From the NCBI RefSeq assembly GCF_024502345.1, contig NZ_JALDNN010000001.1: a stretch of 64,000 nucleotides of DNA; one strand, given 5' to 3'. Positions 1 to 9,091 of this stretch are shown here, piece by piece. Position 1 is the first letter of the stretch. Each line of letters opens with the position of its first letter. The notes beneath the pieces were generated by a model. The model had not been told where the DNA came from and ran no database searches. It saw only the letters and a program-made list of their open reading frames with translations. Source of the stretch: Escherichia coli. Its GTDB lineage: Bacteria; Pseudomonadota; Gammaproteobacteria; Enterobacterales; Enterobacteriaceae. The translations under genes were made by a program, and so were the position numbers.

Positions 1-1
1 T

Positions 2-340
2 AAGGCAGATATCCGGACTTCTGAGCACAGCAGCAAGAAACCCGGCGTTGTTGGTACTGCCCTGACCAAACAGTGGGCGAAATACACGGGACGGGAAGCT
101 GTCCTGCTGCTGTTCCAGAATGGCGTGAATCGCATCAAGCGCTATCCATTCACGGGAGAACAGGCCCCCTTCGCCATTGGCGGTTAAGCGCAGGGCAAGA
201 CTCCCGGTTTCACCCTCTTTACCCAGCTCATACGTCAGCAGTCCTTTACTGTGGGGGCTGATTTTCTCGGCTTCCCCCATGTAGAACACGGTATAGCTTT
301 CGGTGACGGCGGCTTCGGTAGCGATTTTTTTCTTACTCAT
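2..340 (-). CDS. hypothetical protein, N-terminal 113 codons only; gene continues beyond window start
   Basis: Hand translation from ATG at 340..338 is open to position 2; start overlaps the stop of the upstream gene (ATGAGTAA). Not in ORF track because its stop lies outside the window. Confidence 0.45.
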   Translation of the reverse strand, partial: MSKKKIATEAAVTESYTVFYMGEAEKISPHSKGLLTYELGKEGETGSLALRLTANGEGGLFSREWIALDAIHAILEQQQDSFPSRVFRPLFGQGSTNNAGFLAAVLRSPDICL

Positions 341-713
341 GGTTCAGCGCCTCAATCAGGTTCCGGAGTTGAGTGATAACGGTCGTGTCCGGGAACACCA
401 GATAGATACCCTGTCCGTTATCGCAGACGATACCGAGCAGGAGATACCAGCCATCATCAAGTGCGGTGACGTATTCCGGGTTAGCCAGTGCCACTGCCAG
501 CAGCGGGTCTTCGGGGAGGGTGTCATCGTGGTTGAGATGCCAGAGCAGGGTTCCCGTTTCGTTCCAGAAGGTGGTAAACAGGTCGATATCATCGACAGGG
601 CCAAGGATTTCATTGCTGAGGGCCGCCAGTGCGGAGGCGGGCAGGTTGAGAAGGGGAAGACTGGTGGGGGTCGTGAGTTTAAACATGATTATCTCCATAA
701 ATGATTGATTCAT
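333..713 (-). CDS. hypothetical small acidic protein (126 aa; may start at an internal Met)
   Basis: Six-frame ORF; D/E-rich; stop overlaps start of the next minus-strand gene; AT-rich upstream region 714..1200. Confidence 0.45.
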   Translation of the reverse strand: MNQSFMEIIMFKLTTPTSLPLLNLPASALAALSNEILGPVDDIDLFTTFWNETGTLLWHLNHDDTLPEDPLLAVALANPEYVTALDDGWYLLLGIVCDNGQGIYLVFPDTTVITQLRNLIEALNHE

Positions 714-967
714 ATTGATAATATGTTTTCAAATGACTTTTAGTTACATTTTATTTACGTTGTTTGCTTTTTCTGGATTATGCCCTTAAATTTAGTTCTA
801 ACCTGGCATTAAATCCCGTTTTTTTTAGATTTTTAGAGTTTTATAAAGAAATTAGCATGTGCTGTTTTAACTGAAAATGAGAGAAGGCTTGCGCACAATT
901 GCTATTGATTTTCTTACTTATTTTCTCAATCACAAAACGCCTTAAATAGTTCAAAAAACAATCAACA

Positions 968-1038
968 CCCCATAATCGATATTATTTATGGGGAGAAACG
1001 ACGTTTAAGCCTGAAAGTGGGGGAGTGGCACTTTCAGG
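968..1038. other. two adjacent perfect hairpins (8-bp stem at 968..993, 10-bp stem at 1010..1038) upstream of integrase gene
   Basis: ccccataa/ttatgggg and cctgaaagtg/cactttcagg inverted repeats read directly; no flanking T-run. Confidence 0.3.
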
Positions 1039-1204
1039 AGATTAAGGAGGCAAACAGGCCTCTTTAACGCGTGTTTTTCTCACCAAAATGTCAGAGTCGG
1101 TGATTTGCACTTCAGTATTTCTGCCAATACTATTCGCTCCATGTGCTGGCCAGCATCTAACTCAATACCCTTAATCTGTATTAATTGAGCGAGATGTATG
1201 CATT

Positions 1205-2515
1205 ATGAAACCCGATAGTTCTTTAAACCAAATAACGCAGACAATGAAACGGAATGATGTTGATTCTGTGGATAGTCGCTTTTTTGAGTCAGCGCAAAAC
1301 ATGAAAACCAGCGTTGACGTTGAAGATTGCTGCGTTGAAGTGATGGTTCGACATCACAGCCCAAAGAATCAAAGAGAGGCATTCACTAAAGCTTTTTTTG
1401 ATGAGTGTAAAATCCGTGCAGTACAAACTGGCCGGACTATCGAAGCCAGCGATACAAAATGTACCGGGCTTAAGGCTATATTCCACTCATCCGGACGCAT
1501 TAAGTTTATTGTCCGCAAAAGTATTCGCGGAAAGAATGTTTACGTTGCAGTAGGAAGTTACCCTGAATTTTCCATTAATAACGCAAGGGAACATGCCTTT
1601 AAAATAATTCAGGAGCTTAAGGCTTCCGTTGAGACTTATGGTGAGCGTTTTCTTACTCACAGTAAAATGACGTTTAATGAGCTTGTGGATGAGTATGAGA
1701 AAAGCGTACTCAGCACGGGCGTTAAGCGTTCAGCTAACACCGATCTTTCTAAGATCCGTAAATACCTGCGCCCTCTTCTCGGTGCCAAAAAGCTGGCAGG
1801 TATGACGGAGGCAGATATTCTGAGCTATCTGCATAATCTCGATCTCAAGCCTGCCACCCGCAACCGCCATCTGGCGCTCATTAAAGCGGTGTTTACCAGG
1901 GCAATACGCATGGGATACATCAGCCGCTCTCCGGCGCTTTATATCAAAGCGCTGCCTGAAGTGACGTCAGATCGCCGTGCCATGGATGACTCCCAGCTTC
2001 AGCGCTGGATGGACGTCTGTGAGCGCTGGCGTAATGGTAAACCCGATCATGAAGCCCTTGCTCTTCTCATGTTCCTTGCCCTGACGGGGCTGCGTCTGGG
2101 GGAAACCCGTCACCTTCGTCTTGAAGATGTGGACTGGAGCCGCAAGGTTATCACCCTTCGCCATACCAAAAACGGCAAACTACGCCGTGTACCGGTATGT
2201 GATAAGGCTTTCGTTCTTCTGACAGAACAGCGTCAGCATCTGGGTGATGAAGGCTGGGTATTTCCGGGCAAGGGAACCGACAATCCGGTTGCTGAGCCGC
2301 GTCGCCTGCAAAAACGACTTTGTGAGGCTGCGGGTATTCCACCGTTCACCATCCATGAGATGCGTCATACCTTTGCGACAAAGCTCATTGAGAGCGGGGC
2401 CGACATTCACACCGTCAAAGACTTATTGGGTCACAGCACTATCAAAGTAACGGAGCTTTACTTGCACGCTTCCCCGGCGCGTTACCACGAAGTCGTTAAC
2501 CGGGCGATGGGGTAA
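1205..2515 (+). CDS. tyrosine recombinase / P4-type integrase (436 aa)
   Basis: C-terminal catalytic motif HxxR...Y (HTFATKLIESGADIHTVKDLLGHSTIKVTELYLH); N-terminal arm-binding-like segment. Confidence 0.85.
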   Translation: MKPDSSLNQITQTMKRNDVDSVDSRFFESAQNMKTSVDVEDCCVEVMVRHHSPKNQREAFTKAFFDECKIRAVQTGRTIEASDTKCTGLKAIFHSSGRIKFIVRKSIRGKNVYVAVGSYPEFSINNAREHAFKIIQELKASVETYGERFLTHSKMTFNELVDEYEKSVLSTGVKRSANTDLSKIRKYLRPLLGAKKLAGMTEADILSYLHNLDLKPATRNRHLALIKAVFTRAIRMGYISRSPALYIKALPEVTSDRRAMDDSQLQRWMDVCERWRNGKPDHEALALLMFLALTGLRLGETRHLRLEDVDWSRKVITLRHTKNGKLRRVPVCDKAFVLLTEQRQHLGDEGWVFPGKGTDNPVAEPRRLQKRLCEAAGIPPFTIHEMRHTFATKLIESGADIHTVKDLLGHSTIKVTELYLHASPARYHEVVNRAMG

Positions 2516-2584
2516 CAACCTTCACTCAACGGTATGGTTTTTAACTATGGTTCTGATGCACCCGTTTTCTGACGGTGGCGTAAT

Positions 2585-4513
2585 TTGATGGTAATACACA
2601 TGAATAAAAAAGTGACAACTAATGTTCCTAAGGTTTCCGGGATTAAGCGTATTCGCGCTTTTGCTGACCGCGATAAAAATTTCAACAAAATGTCGGAAGC
2701 AATTATCAGGCGTGCTGAAAACACTGAGGTCGGTGAAGATGATATCGCTTCACTCGGTATTGGTGATGGGCTGCCACGGCATTATGTGAATACGGCTAAT
2801 GGCCTTTTCTACATCGGTGGACAGAAACCTGTGCAGGTTTGCACCACGCCAGTTGTGCCTGTCGCCCTGTTTTGTGGAAAAGATAAGGAGTCCGGTCTTG
2901 GGATCAGCCTGATGACCGGTAACGGGCTGGGTAAGTATGTTAAGGCCCTGGTACGCTTTGAGGATATTGTTCAGAGCGGTGCTCAGGTAGTAGGCAAACT
3001 GGCAGATCGTGGATTTTGTGTTGGCTCCTCTCCACAGCAGTTTGCCCTTTTTGACCGTTTTCTTCAGCGCTGCCGGAGTTTACCGCTGCCTGTCTATCTG
3101 ATGGCAGATGCGATGGGATTCGTTTCGGAGGATATGGCCTTTTTACATGGTCATGAGCCCGTTGTGACCTCTCTGACCGGGTTTGATTATCTACTGCCGG
3201 GATTCCGCGTGCGTCCCGGACTGCACAAAGGTGGGGCCCTGGAGGAGTGGATTAACCTCATCCGGGAAAATGTCCATGGCTGGGCGCAGACCTTTGCACT
3301 GAGTGCGTCCTTTGCTTCGATGCTTCTGGTTCCTGCCGGTATGGATGTGGGCATGTTTCATTTTCACGGCGTATCCACCACCGGTAAAACGCTTCTCCTG
3401 ATGCTGGCTGCATCGGTCCATGGTGATGGCAGCGAGCCGGGTAGTGGGGGGAATGTAAATATTATTCGCTGGAATACCACGCCTAACGCGATGGAGCGCC
3501 TTCTCGCTGACTATTCCGGTCTGGTCGCCTGCGTCGATGAACTGGGTGCGAGTAATCATAAGCAACTTTCCTCACTGCTTTACAACATTACGTCAGGTAC
3601 GGCAAAAGAGCGCCTGAACCGTGGCCTGACGGCAGATGAGCCGTTTAAATGGCGCATGTTTATTCTCTCCACCGGTGAGATGTCAATCTCCGAAAAGCTG
3701 GCTGAACAGAAAGCCGTGTTACAGGGAGGGCAGGAGCACAGGGCCATCAGTATGGAACTGTTGCCTGAGGATGCTCAAAAACCGGATGAACCGGTATCAG
3801 AAACACGTGCCCGTGCAGATGCACTGAAGACGGGGCTGGCAGAGGCTTATGGTCATGCCGGGCCTGCATTTATCGGCAAACTGTTATCCGGGAAAAATAC
3901 GGCTGGCGGTCTTCGCACCTACGCAGAGTTTTCATCCTGGCTCCAGGAACAGACAGATGATTGCTGTAACGCACTGGAAGAGGCCCTGAGGGATGAGGGG
4001 CGTGATATTACCCGCGTTCAGCGGCGCGGACTGAAAAGATTTGCGCTGGTATGGCTGGCAGGAGAGAAGGCGCTGAAATATGGCCTTTTACCTTTCGAAA
4101 GCGATGCGGTGGCTGAATCCGTTATGTCCGCTGCACGACGCTGGCTGGATGATAACCAGAATCAGTATAACCCGGTGCGTAACATGCTGGAGGAGCTTCA
4201 GCTGACGCTGGTGACAAAAAGCAGCAGGCACTTTATCACCCTGCGTGACGAACATGCCCGATGCCCGGGAGATATGTGGGGATTCGTCCATTACAAAACC
4301 GGCGACTTCCTGATTTATGAATCGGTGTTTGAAAAGCTCTGTTCTGAAAAGGGACTTAAGACCGTTGATGTGGCCAGACCGTTAGAGCGTTCCGGTTATC
4401 TGCTTGGCGAAAGTGCCGGACACTATAAAAAAAGAGCGCTGAAGACGATGGCGCAGTCTTACTACCAGGTCAAAAAAGCGTTTCTGAAATGCAATGTGAT
4501 GACCGAATTTTAA
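2585..4513 (+). CDS. DUF927-like / P4 alpha-like SF3 helicase-domain protein (642 aa)
   Basis: Walker A GVSTTGKT and Walker B-like VACVDELG; immediately downstream of integrase; domain assignment from memory. Confidence 0.6.
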   Translation: MMVIHMNKKVTTNVPKVSGIKRIRAFADRDKNFNKMSEAIIRRAENTEVGEDDIASLGIGDGLPRHYVNTANGLFYIGGQKPVQVCTTPVVPVALFCGKDKESGLGISLMTGNGLGKYVKALVRFEDIVQSGAQVVGKLADRGFCVGSSPQQFALFDRFLQRCRSLPLPVYLMADAMGFVSEDMAFLHGHEPVVTSLTGFDYLLPGFRVRPGLHKGGALEEWINLIRENVHGWAQTFALSASFASMLLVPAGMDVGMFHFHGVSTTGKTLLLMLAASVHGDGSEPGSGGNVNIIRWNTTPNAMERLLADYSGLVACVDELGASNHKQLSSLLYNITSGTAKERLNRGLTADEPFKWRMFILSTGEMSISEKLAEQKAVLQGGQEHRAISMELLPEDAQKPDEPVSETRARADALKTGLAEAYGHAGPAFIGKLLSGKNTAGGLRTYAEFSSWLQEQTDDCCNALEEALRDEGRDITRVQRRGLKRFALVWLAGEKALKYGLLPFESDAVAESVMSAARRWLDDNQNQYNPVRNMLEELQLTLVTKSSRHFITLRDEHARCPGDMWGFVHYKTGDFLIYESVFEKLCSEKGLKTVDVARPLERSGYLLGESAGHYKKRALKTMAQSYYQVKKAFLKCNVMTEF

Positions 4514-4562
4514 CCCTGAATAAAACCATTTTGACTGAATAACAACGAATAGAAGGTGATGT

Positions 4563-4919
4563 ATGATTTTTGAATCAGACCAGTACTATGACGGTTTTCC
4601 TCACGCTATCAGCAGCGAAAATGAAGAAAAAACCTCATTCAATGATTACGCTCTGGTTAACACACTGGCGGAGTGCCTGTATCACGACATTTCTCGTGAA
4701 ATCTTCGATGGCAGTGAGCCGGCGCTCCGGGCCGTCATTGCCAACGGTCAGATTAAATTCCTGGCTCGTTATACGCTTAGAGGGGCCTGCTATTATGAAC
4801 CCCTCGGCACATTTCCACGTATGCCCGTTAACGTCGCGCGTGAACGAGCACGTGAACTCTATAACAGATTTGATGATCACCGGGTGCCGGATGAAGAATA
4901 TGGGGCCATCCCGTTCTGA
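4563..4919 (+). CDS. hypothetical protein (118 aa)
   Basis: ORF 50 bp downstream of the helicase-like gene on the same strand. Confidence 0.45.
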   Translation: MIFESDQYYDGFPHAISSENEEKTSFNDYALVNTLAECLYHDISREIFDGSEPALRAVIANGQIKFLARYTLRGACYYEPLGTFPRMPVNVARERARELYNRFDDHRVPDEEYGAIPF

Positions 4920-4925
4920 CTGATG

Positions 4926-4958
4926 GCTGAACAGTAAAAAAAAGCAGGGGCACTTGCC
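4926..4958. terminator. putative bidirectional terminator between convergent genes
   Basis: Imperfect hairpin gcagggg...cctctgc flanked by A-run and T-run. Confidence 0.35.
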
Positions 4959-4973
4959 TCTGCTTTTCTGTTA

Positions 4974-6158
4974 TCACAAGGACGGTAGCTGAGCCGTTAT
5001 CCTTTCCGCCAGTAACTGACTGGTGTTCTGTAAGCGCTGAGGATGAAGATGCGCATACCGTTGTGAAGACTGACTGCTGCGGTGCCCCAGTTGAGCCTGA
5101 ACGTCATACAGTGTTCCGCCGTAGGACACGATGAGGGCGGCAACCGAATGGCGGCAGGTATGAATACACACTTCTTTGTCGAAAATTCCCGCCCGACGAA
5201 CGATACGCTGAAAGGCTTTAACGGGGTTATTCAGCGGCATTCCTTGTTTTTTACCGATAAACAACCACGGATTTCCACGCTGTGTTGGCAGTGTTCTGAT
5301 TACGTCCATCGCCAGTGAATTAAGATGAACAATCCGTCCATAGCCATTCTTGGTTTCCGGGAGCCATAGGGTGCGTTTAACCGGGTCAACATGCTCCCAC
5401 TTAGCCAGACGCAGTTCATCACGACGAAGGCCGGTCAGTAACAGCAGTTTGACATAGCGGGCAGCTACGGGGCTGGTATCGTTATCGGCGGAGAGAAAAA
5501 TACGACGAATTTCGTCCTCGGTAAAATAACGCTGTCGGGCGTTGTTCTCCCTGAGTAGCTGTACCACCCTTGCCGGATGAACAGAGGTCATGCTTTGCCT
5601 TCCGGCCCATGTAAAGACGGCTTTAATGAGTACGATGACACGGTTACAGGTAGCCGCTGACAGGGAAGTACTTAACGTCTGCTGAAGGCGCAGAATGCTC
5701 GCTGGTGTGATATCGCTCAGCAGCCTCTGACCAATGGCGGGACGGATATGATCGCGGTAGCGCTGAACATCCTTTCCCCAACTGCGTTTAGCGGATTTTG
5801 CCCATGGCAGATAATGCTGATTAAAGAGTTCATCGAACGTCAGCTCCATTCTCTTGTTTTCACGCTCCTGCTTAGGGTCAGTGCCGGTGGCAAGGGAACG
5901 TTTGTGTTCTATGGCAATCTGACGAGCAAGATTGACGTCCACTTCAGGCCAGTGACCAATGGCGATGGCGCGTTTTCGTCCATGATAAAGGTAGCGTAGC
6001 AAAAACTTTTTACGACCTTCTCTTCTGCTGACCAGACACTTGAGGCCGGAAATCTCAGTGTCGCTGTATTCGGCATCGGTACTGCGTGCATCGGATGTGT
6101 TAGGGGGCAGGGATTTAATGAGCTGATTAGTAAAACGGAAGCGTTTGGGGGTGGACAT
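4974..6158 (-). CDS. P4-type tyrosine integrase (394 aa)
   Basis: Catalytic motif HTCRHSVAALIVSYGG...LGHRSSQSSQRYAH; arm-binding-like N-terminus; tRNA-proximal. Confidence 0.85.
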   Translation of the reverse strand: MSTPKRFRFTNQLIKSLPPNTSDARSTDAEYSDTEISGLKCLVSRREGRKKFLLRYLYHGRKRAIAIGHWPEVDVNLARQIAIEHKRSLATGTDPKQERENKRMELTFDELFNQHYLPWAKSAKRSWGKDVQRYRDHIRPAIGQRLLSDITPASILRLQQTLSTSLSAATCNRVIVLIKAVFTWAGRQSMTSVHPARVVQLLRENNARQRYFTEDEIRRIFLSADNDTSPVAARYVKLLLLTGLRRDELRLAKWEHVDPVKRTLWLPETKNGYGRIVHLNSLAMDVIRTLPTQRGNPWLFIGKKQGMPLNNPVKAFQRIVRRAGIFDKEVCIHTCRHSVAALIVSYGGTLYDVQAQLGHRSSQSSQRYAHLHPQRLQNTSQLLAERITAQLPSL

Positions 6159-6503
6159 ATAACCTCCTGTGACTGGTGTAAAGAACGTCAGGGTTGCCCC
6201 ATCCCCGGCACGGCGCTGTTAATGGCTGAGTTGATTTTCTGGTGTGGCTAAGGGAATGCTGGTGCCACATGGGATGAATGAAGACGAGAAATACAGCAAA
6301 AACAGGCGTTACGGTCTGCTTCTGGTCTTAAGGGGAAGATTGCCGTTGGGGAAGAGTTCACAGAAATAATATGTGTTTCAGTCGGGTATAATTACATGTG
6401 ATAAGGGCAAAGAGCGTGCTTTGCTAAAATTTGACATGTTGAAGTCCACTCTTTTTAACGATGTCGTTATGGACGACATGGCGAGTCTTGCTTAGATAAT
6501 TAA

Positions 6504-7091
6504 TCAAAATACTGTGACTTTGGACCCACGTTTACCACATTTCGAGCACTTGAGCCGAGTTTTAAGGTCTTCTAGAGTTACTCCCATTGCAACATACTGC
6601 TTAAGGTCGTTCAAAGTAAGGATTGTGGGGAGACGACAAAAAAATCCAGAGGCGCAACATACCAGCATCTCCGAGCCGTTTTTTAACCAGTCCTCAAGAT
6701 TATCGTGCGATCTCGTTAGTCGTTCGATATCCGCTCTCCACTGCTGGATTTCATTACCGTTCCAGTCGATATTTAGCTCGATTTGTTTGGCAACGAACCG
6801 GTGTTTACCTCTGTTAACTGTGGGTTCATAGTCCTTACGTTGATCTTTGATGAGATCAGCCTCATAGAGGAAATCATCGTTTTTGTTGTCGGTATAATCA
6901 AAAATTACCTTAATTAAATCAATATCAACGTTTTGTTTTTTGATGAATAAACCCTGTGTTCCGCTTCCGTTCAAGTCCCGGCTAAAGTTAATGTTGAGAT
7001 GGCGGCGGAGTGAGAAGAAATAGCTGTGGCCGTGCATAGCCAATGCAAGTCTGGCTATGTCATTGCAGTTGTAGGGTGTGTGTGTATCCAT
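6504..7091 (-). CDS. hypothetical protein (195 aa), AT-rich, C-terminal CxxC
   Basis: ORF between integrase and tRNA-Phe; low GC; ends CSKCGKRGSK. Confidence 0.45.
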   Translation of the reverse strand: MDTHTPYNCNDIARLALAMHGHSYFFSLRRHLNINFSRDLNGSGTQGLFIKKQNVDIDLIKVIFDYTDNKNDDFLYEADLIKDQRKDYEPTVNRGKHRFVAKQIELNIDWNGNEIQQWRADIERLTRSHDNLEDWLKNGSEMLVCCASGFFCRLPTILTLNDLKQYVAMGVTLEDLKTRLKCSKCGKRGSKVTVF

Positions 7092-7607
7092 GATGTTACC
7101 TTTAATTCATATTCGGTCGAGAGCGTCAGGAAACTATCCTAATATACCTTTTTTCTACACCAGTATTTGGATCAATTTTCATCCCTTTGGCCTGCTTCTT
7201 GTTGATTAACTCTCAGCGATGTTTGAAATAGGCCATCAGTGGTCAGAATCATTTTTTACTTCCACTTTTTGCTCAGATTTGACCCTAAGGTCTAAGTTCC
7301 AATACGTTTCGCTCAATTACTATCACCCCTGATAAATTATTCTATGATGACGTGGAGGGCGGGGGATTCAGGCAATGTTAAGAAATGAAAGGTTTAAATG
7401 CGAATATTACAGGTGGAGGAGGTGGTGGATACCCCCGACTGACAAGGGGAGTTGATGGCGCTGAGTTCACCCCCTTGCCTGAAGAGGAGTCTCCCCGGTC
7501 TTCCCCCGGGGGGGATGGCAGGTAATTTGTTGTTAAATAAAGTAAATTATGAAATCCCCCATTTCCCCCGTATTCTCTGCTTCATTATGAATAATCTTAG
7601 AGAAAGG

Positions 7608-7764
7608 AACCGTAAAGGACCGTAGAAAGACCGTAGCTGTGAGGTGAGGGAAGGCACATCAGAGGATGTTGAGGTGTCTAAAAGTAACGAACATCTGCAA
7701 AAATGGTGAAAAATCCAGCAAGAAAATAACGTGTTGCAACGACCAGAAATCTACCGTAGCTAAG
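7608..7764. repeat. four direct copies of accgta(g/a) near the tRNA-Phe 3' end; candidate integrase arm sites
   Basis: Copies at 7608, 7619, 7630 and 7753 read directly. Confidence 0.3.
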
Positions 7765-7805
7765 AAAGGAAAAAGCCCCGCTTTTCAGCGAGGCCTTATG
7801 AATAT

Positions 7806-7881
7806 TGGTGCCCGGACTCGGAATCGAACCAAGGACACGGGGATTTTCAATCCCCTGCTCTACCGACTGAGCTATCCGGGC
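7806..7881 (-). tRNA. pheV: tRNA-Phe (anticodon GAA)
   Basis: Reverse complement reads GCCCGGATAGCTCAGTCGGTAGAGCAGGGGATTGAAAATCCCCGTGTCCTTGGTTCGATTCCGAGTCCGGGCACCA, the canonical E. coli tRNA-Phe. Confidence 0.95.
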
Positions 7882-7986
7882 AACGGGGCGCATTAAACCT
7901 GATTCGCCTCGTCTCGTCAATCAAATTTCTTCAATTTACTGCAGACTGCACAATCTATCATCACTTTGCCGCTATTGCACGCATTG

Positions 7987-8694
7987 TCAGGCAAACCAGG
8001 CGGTCCAGGCGGCGGAAAGCGGCATTGCCAGAAGGAGTGCTGGAAGCATGTTGACCACCGGGAACATTTTAATGCCACAGATGCGTAATCCGGTTGCCAG
8101 CAGCAATAAACCGCCTACGGCGCTGAAGTCTGCCATCATCGACGGTGTGGTCAGCGGTAATATCAGCGCGGCAGCCCACGCCAGCGTTAACTGGATGATC
8201 AGTAATGGGATACTAATTACCGACACCGCAATACCCAGCGAGCAGGCGAAGATCATCGCCGTAAAGAAATCAAGAAATGACTTGGCGATTAAAATACTCG
8301 GATCGCCGGTCATCCCTTCGTTCATCGCCCCGAAGATCCCGGTGCCGCTGGCGCAAAACAGGACAATAATCGCGACATAATTCTGAATAAAAGATTCATG
8401 CGCTGGCTTCTTACGTGAGTGACGAAACAGATTTTGTGCTTTGGCGACTGCTGTATTGACACCTTTCTCCAGCAAACAAATTTCGCCAATTAGAGCGCCA
8501 AGTAGCGTAGCTAAAACCATCGCTGGAAGGTTGGCGCATTTCACAACCAGTAAAATACCAATCCCCAGCGATGCCAGACCAAAAATAGATGTCATGGAGA
8601 CGCGGATACGTTCCGGTAAGCGTTGGCTGAGCAGTGCGCCGAGAACGCCACCCAGTAAGACTGCACTAGCGTTGATAAAAGGGCCGATGACCAC
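7987..8694 (-). CDS. yqgA: DUF554 family inner membrane protein (235 aa)
   Basis: Hydrophobic 235-aa ORF between pheV and speC, as in K-12. Confidence 0.8.
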   Translation of the reverse strand: MVIGPFINASAVLLGGVLGALLSQRLPERIRVSMTSIFGLASLGIGILLVVKCANLPAMVLATLLGALIGEICLLEKGVNTAVAKAQNLFRHSRKKPAHESFIQNYVAIIVLFCASGTGIFGAMNEGMTGDPSILIAKSFLDFFTAMIFACSLGIAVSVISIPLLIIQLTLAWAAALILPLTTPSMMADFSAVGGLLLLATGLRICGIKMFPVVNMLPALLLAMPLSAAWTAWFA

Positions 8695-9091
8695 AAGAGT
8701 TCCTGTTAGCTGTATTGTTTGATTTTCTTATTATGAACTTTTTGCCTTGTTGATGGCTTGTCTGGTCGCAAAGTCCTGGCTTGCACGCTTTAGCGAAAGG
8801 TGCCATGATTGCGCGAATTTTCTCCTCTCTGTACGGAGTTTGCCCGATGCACGCCATCTCCTTACATTCTCTCGCTTATCGCCGTTTCGCGCGAAACGTT
8901 TCCCTTTCTATGTTACTGCTCATGCGGTGAAGTTAACGCACGCTCACTGCAGGACAACAGTAAAATCAGAGCGTTTCTGCTTTTACTGATGTCTGGCGGT
9001 CGGAGCTGGTGACCAGTTTGACCCATATCTCATGGGGCAGGGTTTTCCACCTTGTCCGGTATTCTTACTTCCCCGAAACGGGTTTGCGCTT

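Follow-up and report, generated by a model that had tools for sequence, protein, structure and literature searches.

The DNA analysed here (the window) is a stretch of 64,000 nt from Escherichia coli that starts within a genomic island. The island is inserted at a tRNA-Phe gene (7806–7881, − strand), and the neighbouring genes yqgA, speC and nupG mark the insertion site as pheV. Its core contains a leftward operon (DeoR-like protein of 79 aa, LRAT, DUF2787, and proteins of 143 and 117 aa) and a rightward unit of two genes, int2 and DUF927. The hairpins that are the subject of this analysis sit in the divergent intergenic region between the operon and the int2–DUF927 unit. The features are these:

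727–1381, strand not assigned: swappable cassette carrying the hairpins, comprising the intergenic region and int2 codons 1–59
968–975/986–993, + strand: H1, perfect 8-bp hairpin CCCCATAA-TCGATATTAT-TTATGGGG, with an AT-rich loop of 10 nt
993–1004, + strand: 5′ strand of the closing stem, GAGAAAC.ACGT, paired with 1069–1079 in both the MFE and the centroid structure
1010–1019/1029–1038, + strand: H2, perfect 10-bp hairpin CCTGAAAGTG-GGGGAGTGG-CACTTTCAGG, with a loop of 9 nt
1042–1051/1058–1067, + strand: H3, 10 pairs (one G.U), TTAAGGAGGC-AAACAG-GCCTCTTTAA, the stem of a terminator-like site
1068–1081, + strand: T-rich tail CGCGTGTTTTTCTC, forming both the U-tract of the terminator-like site and the closing stem's 3′ strand
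1104–1133, + strand: candidate int2 promoter TTTGCA-18-TACTAT, putative and weak (8/12 consensus matches)
1144–1155, strand not assigned: perfect palindrome of 12 bp, TGCTGGCCAGCA, ∼50 bp before the ATG of int2
1205–2515, + strand: int2, tyrosine recombinase, first gene of the int2–DUF927 unit
2585–4513, + strand: DUF927/Cch-like helicase, downstream of int2
4974–6158, − strand: int1, adjoining the tRNA gene, an integrase distinct from int2

The host island and its control region

The ATG of int2 at 1205 is the start conserved in homologous loci. Measured from it, H1 and H2 lie 167–237 bp upstream, in agreement with an earlier note on this DNA that had placed two perfect hairpins 170–240 bp before the integrase start; both stems, of 8 and 10 bp, are 100% complementary. 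The int2 protein gives a complete match to Phage_integrase (111 bits) with the RKHRHY residues present, and a match to Arm-DNA-bind_3 below threshold only. It had been called a P4-type integrase, a label that does not suit what is the second integrase of the island.

The same island occurs at pheU in strain WCHEC025943 (locus L002), where it is ∼25.5 kb in length and its ends are a 49-bp direct repeat of the 3′ end of the tRNA. Its cargo comprises a type I restriction-modification system, a DUF262/GmrSD-like gene and a SIR2 gene, and it is therefore a defence island. The family is present in 113 of 5,426 complete E. coli genomes. The core is found in the genera Escherichia, Enterobacter, Kluyvera, Buttiauxella, Citrobacter, Hafnia, Edwardsiella, Pseudescherichia, Salmonella and Rosenbergiella, and also in metagenomes.

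Pipolins are bimodular defence islands that encode piPolB, and those of gammaproteobacteria have a core of two tyrosine recombinases, DUF2787 and two orphan proteins (PMC11551731). The host island (as distinct from the hairpins) resembles them in each of these core genes, in its defence cargo and in its association with a tRNA gene. It differs in targeting tRNA-Phe, where pipolins target tRNA-Leu, and in having the DUF927/Cch-like helicase in the place of piPolB; no polymerase B gene is present in the fully annotated L002 island. The island is therefore pipolin-like rather than a pipolin.

Several parts of the island vary between copies. In NT1W25 (L001) a 2.1-kb deletion, corresponding to 2271–4371 of the window, leaves the 5′ portion of int2 joined to the 3′ portion of DUF927, and the fusion product is a 387-aa integrase in the RefSeq annotation. 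The interval between int1 and tRNA-Phe (6159–7805) contains one ORF of ∼195 aa in the window, and a SIR2-family gene with a gene for a 667-aa protein in WCHEC025943 (L002 25258–29198); it is probably a second variable slot, for defence genes. Between DUF927 and int1 lies a 118-aa ORF (4563–4919) with a weak match to Arm-DNA-bind_3, apparently left over from the N-terminal part of a third integrase. At other loci the slot is occupied by variable small ORFs.

Closer to int2, a block GATTTGCAC...GCCAATA at the candidate promoter is conserved in the cassette type of the window (termed W) and in the L091 and L010 types. The palindrome TGCTGGCCAGCA is kept in five otherwise different intergenic cassette types, and in Rosenbergiella (L107) it takes the form TGCTGCGCAGCA, a symmetric double change by which the palindrome is preserved. 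From this pattern of conservation, the palindrome is likely to be an operator of int2.

Structure and conservation of the hairpin block

The RNA fold of 960–1085 is based upon three hairpins and one long-range stem. Starting at the 5′ end the strand forms H1 (−11.1 kcal/mol and z = −3.0 as a single hairpin), and then continues as the ascending strand of the closing stem. This is followed by H2 (−15.2 kcal/mol, z = −3.3) and H3 (−13.1 kcal/mol), after which comes CGCGTGTTTTTCT; the descending strand of the closing stem lies at 1069–1079. The closing stem (993–1004/1069–1079) thus surrounds both H2 and H3; it includes two G.U pairs, and these are possible on the + strand only. At −44.7 kcal/mol (z = −5.2) the whole block of 126 nt is more stable than every one of 200 dinucleotide shuffles; over the block folds z is around −5 to −6 relative to shuffles. 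The GC content of the hairpin block is ∼50%, and that of the adjoining DNA 22–33%. The sequences of H1 and H2 are not related.

Counting perfect stems with loops of 3–12 nt, the 64-kb window contains nine hairpins of at least 10 bp, compared with 0.6 ± 0.8 in composition-matched shuffles, and 30 of at least 8 bp where 9.2 are expected. From the excess of long stems together with the z of the fold, the feature is real and not a product of chance, and the hairpin structure is genuine and non-random. Eight of the nine long hairpins, that is all the others, resemble ordinary terminators.

The earlier note recorded the absence of a T-run, and hence of a canonical terminator. This holds for H1 and H2, neither of which is directly followed by a T-run, but the third hairpin, which has one, was overlooked. 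In a scan of 600–1400, H3 with its T-run is the sole terminator-like site, and it is on the + strand. It has the arrangement of an intrinsic terminator, a stable GC-containing hairpin and then a U-rich tract, in marginal form: the T-run begins 5–6 nt past the stem, and the site is hence non-canonical.

Two further repeats were seen in this region. Iteron-like direct repeats at 871–889, 1011–1029 and 1095–1116 are 74–79% alike and too weak to interpret. The linker between H2 and H3 with the foot of H3 (AGATTAAGG, 1039–1047) is perfectly complementary to CCTTAATCT at 1169–1177, 28–36 nt before the start codon of int2; A1041G and C1176T, two polymorphisms within these segments, each leave G.U pairs, and ∼0.7 perfect 9-mer complementarities of this kind are expected by chance in the region.

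The two strands differ in the stability of their folds. The 102-nt core has −40.5 kcal/mol on the + strand and −32.4 kcal/mol on the − strand, a difference of ∼8 kcal/mol that arises from G.U pairs, since three of these on the + strand are C.A on the − strand. The − strand fold is likewise significant, with z = −4.4 for 940–1085 and −5.2 for the 102-nt block (range −4.4 to −5.4). On the basis of the predicted folds the + strand is favoured for a structured RNA. The opposite arrangement would be a long 5′ leader of the leftward operon (117 aa, 143 aa, DUF2787 and onwards), or an antisense RNA running from near the int2 start codon to a T-run left of H1 (∼950–958). It could draw on the significance of the − fold, on a weak − strand promoter candidate (TTGGTT-18-CATAAT, 1231–1202), and on H1 being followed on that strand, 10 nt on, by TTGTTTTTTG. 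We consider it very unlikely, given the weaker − fold and a T-run that is too distant from H1 for a canonical terminator. The polymorphisms A1030G and A1048G, the latter carried by most W-type sequences, create A.C mismatches on the − strand, and an analogous element in another cassette (L092, see below) is structured on the + strand only.

Conservation was examined in an alignment of 15 W-type sequences that diverge by at most 8.6% over the cassette. H1 has no variable site in 26; H2 has one in 29 (A1030G, giving U.G on the + strand) and H3 one in 26 (A1048G, giving G.U on the + strand), and these are the sole changes in the hairpin stems. Grouped by structural class, 4/10 linker sites, 3/78 stem sites and 0/25 loop sites are variable. 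The 5′ strand of the closing stem (993–1004) is invariant, and the T-rich tail (1068–1081) varies at 1 of 14 sites; here T1074C, present in 3 of the 15 sequences, disrupts one pair of the closing stem. In total 7 of 114 sites are variable in 968–1081, compared with 4% in 1082–1204, 17.5% in int2 codons 1–59 and 41% in the distal AT-rich half of the intergenic region. The block is thus constrained within the W type, in numbers too small to prove the structure.

The nearest diverged type, L091/L103, has ∼70% identity and is matched by a W covariance model with E = 6e-6. It keeps the primary-sequence blocks GGGGAGAAAC, GGCAAACAGGCC and TTTAACGCGTGTT. The pairs retained are 6 of 8 in H1 (two of them wobble), 4 of 10 in H2 and 8 of 10 in H3, and the segment folds no better than shuffles (z = −0.3). 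The earlier note had made absence of conservation of the paired positions in relatives the test of its hairpins, and the outcome is divided: H1 and H2 are lost in L091/L103 and near-invariant within the W type. Its proposal of covariation across homologous islands yielded nothing, as 0 of 38 pairs are changed on both sides (in a model alignment with only 10 distinct sequences, and thus of low power); base pairs kept by compensatory changes, the mark of a conserved structured RNA family, are not found across these homologues. Covariance models built on W, or on W with L091, find only W and L091/L103, all other cassette types having E > 1. The structure is of limited phylogenetic reach, a lineage-restricted and modest feature.

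These results bear on whether the hairpins have a function at all. The palindromes could be products of chance or of mutation (quasi-palindromes corrected by template switching, for example) in an intergenic cassette that evolves fast and is exchanged horizontally, their conservation reflecting the recent kinship of W-type sequences. The perfection of the stems would suggest a recent origin, divergence of at most 8.6% gives low power to see constraint, covariation is zero, and H1 and H2 are missing from L091/L103 and all other cassette types though surrounding sequence blocks persist. We regard this as unlikely. Three adjacent stable hairpins with a closing stem are improbable by chance (z = −5 to −6), when only 0.6 ten-bp hairpins are expected per 64 kb. 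Substitutions concentrate in the linkers, and the block is far less variable than the flanking DNA of the same genomes, adjacent codons included.

Exchange of the cassette and sites in DNA

In loci L006–L009 the flanks 1–726 and 1382–5000 are 92–96% identical to the window, and 727–1381 is swapped for ∼730 bp of unrelated DNA. Across all loci there are at least nine cassette types. The W type is carried by 40 of the 113 island-containing complete E. coli genomes (5,426 searched), the strains AW1.7, G3/10, NCTC9967 and WCHEC025943 among its carriers. In a genome scan with one representative per species, it is also present in Enterobacter asburiae and Kluyvera georgiana, and it occurs in eight metagenome contigs. 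The W cassette is combined with two types of DUF927 that are only 65% identical to each other, while the window-type DUF927 and int2 body are also paired with a different cassette. An identical DeoR-like protein, WP_000113424.1, accompanies W and H cassettes. The cassette is therefore independent of int2, DUF927 and the DeoR-like protein, and the hairpins are not their cognate att, origin or operator sites.

Other properties of the cassette are recorded here. It is an insertion hotspot, with IS1 in Edwardsiella (L088) and a 398-aa ORF of no Pfam match in L083–L086 and L126 (L083 type). The N-terminal extension of int2 (window 1205–1381), of 45–59 codons, is missing from H-type homologues. The variable sites in codons 1–59 are distributed over the codon positions as 10, 10 and 7, with no excess at the third; selection on the extension is relaxed or diversifying, unless the extension is in truth non-coding. 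Two other ORFs were rejected as coding: one of 22 codons at 877–945 that has a stop codon in strain LR-50, and one of 37 codons in the H type, with a stop in several E. coli. An inverted repeat CCTG...CAGG recurs in most cassette types with a spacing of 1 to 23 nt, and this is probably chance.

The earlier note suggested that the hairpins might be a recombination site. As an att-type core or arm used by int2 they would occupy a position upstream of an integrase gene, like attP in P4, and arms of 8–10 bp with spacers of 9–10 bp loosely recall recombinase core sites. In such sites the spacers are usually 6–8 bp, which those here exceed, and H1 and H2 are mutually unrelated. The comparison with att sites that the note called for leads elsewhere: the att repeat is the 49-bp copy of tRNA-Phe, present at the two island ends only in L002 with no third copy. 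No match to tRNA-Phe of 15 nt or more is found in 1–7700, and ARAGORN detects no tRNA or tmRNA remnant at the hairpin region. Near-identical int2 (body 92–96%) is found without these sequences upstream. The presence of unrelated cassettes beside the same int2, together with the lack of a tRNA-Phe-like repeat here, removes this reading, which is close to refuted and which we rate as extremely improbable.

A broader proposal is that the block acts as DNA, its double-stranded or cruciform inverted repeats being bound by a protein of the host or of a helper element, as an oriT, as the origin used by the DUF927 helicase, or as operators lying between the two divergent promoters. The inverted repeats of H1 and H2 are perfect and their spacers conserved, the block stands out in GC content from the DNA beside it, and under weak promoter predictions it lies between two divergent −35 elements. 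For an oriT there is a precedent in SGI1, where a mobilization module of oriT and sgm-sRNA lies upstream of mpsA, which encodes a tyrosine-recombinase-like relaxase (PMC6414798, PMC9299015). The oriT of SGI1 is GC-rich, 125 bp long, has three inverted repeats of at least 7 bp and is located ∼300 bp upstream of mpsA (PMC6414798). In addition, DUF927-bearing islands are often mobilizable, with stem-loop oriTs in intergenic regions (PMC7449626), and MOB_M relaxases, which are tyrosine-recombinase-like, usually adjoin an integrase (bioRxiv 10.64898/2026.01.13.699239).

Here, too, a gene of the tyrosine-recombinase family in an integrated island is preceded, a few hundred base pairs upstream, by a GC-rich block of ∼115 bp with three inverted repeats (8 bp or longer), and the same interval of SGI1 also yields a non-coding RNA with terminator-like inverted repeats. 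By profile, int2 is a canonical integrase and probably not MpsA-like, and there is no mpsB-like partner here. The strong and complete Phage_integrase match of int2 would set it apart from MOB_M proteins, which are missed by standard profiles. The block is without sequence similarity to that of SGI1, and does not co-vary with int2. No similar sequence was found by BLAST in phages or plasmids (72,556 plasmids) at E ≤ 10, nor at other E. coli loci at E ≤ 0.001, and an oriT mimicking that of a known helper is therefore unsupported.

Further points weigh against action as DNA more generally. Unrelated cassettes are found beside one and the same int2 body and DUF927 type, two divergent DUF927 types share the W cassette, and an identical DeoR-like protein accompanies W and H cassettes alike. 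The G.U pairs and wobble-type polymorphisms would be mismatches in DNA, and the inverted repeats are not retained in L091/L103. On balance a site acting as DNA is rather unlikely. Since the cassette is self-contained, a cis-acting RNA or terminator fits better than a site for a protein of the island.

A putative structured RNA or terminator upstream of int2

The only matches to the block in E. coli genomes are the island copies, in one place per genome in 40 genomes, and REP/BIME and ERIC elements, for which many copies would be expected, were rejected on these grounds. Rfam 15 gives no match at the element in a scan of window positions 1–9000, none at E ≤ 10 over 960–1090, and none in the intergenic cassettes of eight other loci. 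A search for RNA duplexes with the start regions of int2, DUF927 and the 117-aa gene gave results no better than shuffles. Viral contigs scanned for the neighbouring 117-aa protein contain no relatives.

Structured elements are also found in other cassette types. In L092 (2831–2950) and L138, which have the Salmonella-type cassette, ∼120 nt form four hairpins within a closing stem, structured on the + (int2) strand only (z = −5.8, compared with −1.1 for the − strand), followed by a GGGATCTCTGATCC hairpin with a T-run. The two sequences differ by seven substitutions, none of which affects the fold, and have no Rfam match. The L083 type has GAGAAAC...CCCTGACA-loop-TGTCAGGG...GTTTT, with −29.7 kcal/mol on the + strand and −23.6 kcal/mol on the − strand. 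Because covariance models do not link these elements to W, the predicted resemblance is analogy and not homology. In the H type, for example L096 3095–3215, a block of ∼120 nt (GATGAATATTCTGGAGGCC...CTTCAGGGAATTTAT) is nearly invariant across genera despite an overall cassette identity of only 77–82%. It is not coding, as there are stop codons in several copies, and RNAalifold on nine sequences gave no compensatory pairs and a positive covariation term.

The reading that we favour, tentatively and as plausible rather than probable, is that the block specifies a structured RNA on the + strand whose 3′ end is an intrinsic terminator close before the int2 promoter, as a small RNA or an insulating terminator. 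This retains the part of the earlier note that proposed a regulatory site or small structured RNA, which is the best remaining reading given the preference for the + strand, the terminator-like end and the conservation within the W type; it is weakened by the loss of pairing in L091/L103 and the lack of compensatory change. In its favour are the sole terminator-like site, the stronger + fold, the polymorphisms that keep G.U pairs, the low variability of the block, the terminator-like character of the other long hairpins of the window, and the analogous cassettes. Against it stand weak promoters, the offset U-tract, T1074C, zero compensatory pairs, the loss in L091/L103 and a significant − strand fold. 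A strict scan finds no promoter for such an RNA, and the best relaxed candidates have 8–9 of 12 consensus matches with poor spacing.

From these features we infer transcription, its start and end, and an effect on int2. Transcription would start in the AT-rich left half of the intergenic region (∼870–985) and head right towards int2. The transcript would pass through H1 and H2 and end at H3 and the U-tract, at ∼1078–1080, some 25 nt before the −35 element of the int2 promoter. The A-rich segment 993–1004 would pair with the U-tract, clamping H2 and H3 into one compact domain. The product might be a stand-alone small RNA of ∼100–170 nt, or the element may be merely an insulating terminator. The genes of excision and replication, int2–DUF927, would then be expressed from their own promoter alone, with the palindrome TGCTGGCCAGCA. 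The terminator is possibly left over from a lost cargo gene, because the intergenic region is an insertion hotspot.

The putative + strand element resembles intrinsic terminators and the 3′ domains of enterobacterial small RNAs in having H3 and a U-tract on the + strand, hairpins upstream of these, and an AU-rich unstructured stretch further upstream. It is unlike them in that there is no upstream gene on the + strand and no recognizable promoter, the U-tract is offset by 5–6 nt, neither H1 nor H2 is accompanied by a U-tract, and Rfam has no match.

The P4 satellite provides a second comparison. Its immunity leader (CI RNA; C4/IsrK-type in Rfam) is a structured non-coding RNA with premature termination upstream of the replication operon, and it lies in a region that differs between related elements. 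The element here would similarly be a structured non-coding leader, placed in a variable region before the replication genes of its island. It differs in having no match to C4, IsrK or other Rfam models and no significant complementarity to the starts of int2 and DUF927, and the primase-helicase is of another family.

Extending the analogy, the cassettes may encode fast-diverging, non-homologous structured RNAs (W, L092/Salmonella, L083 and perhaps H), each with hairpins in a closing stem and a terminator. As type-specific switches or immunity determinants, these RNAs would govern the excision and replication of pipolin-like islands that lack piPolB, analogous in logic to P4 CI RNA and unrelated in sequence. 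This extension is speculative, and we think it distinctly unlikely.

Of the readings considered, the likeliest is an uncharacterized terminator or small RNA belonging to the control cassette of this pipolin-like defence island. No described RNA family is matched, yet the element falls within known kinds. The more useful by-product of the analysis is a map of the control region, with at least nine cassette types, a candidate palindromic operator and structured elements in several of the types. Should it prove to be a terminator or a small RNA gating int2–DUF927, the element would belong to the switch by which a widespread defence island at tRNA-Phe is kept quiescent.
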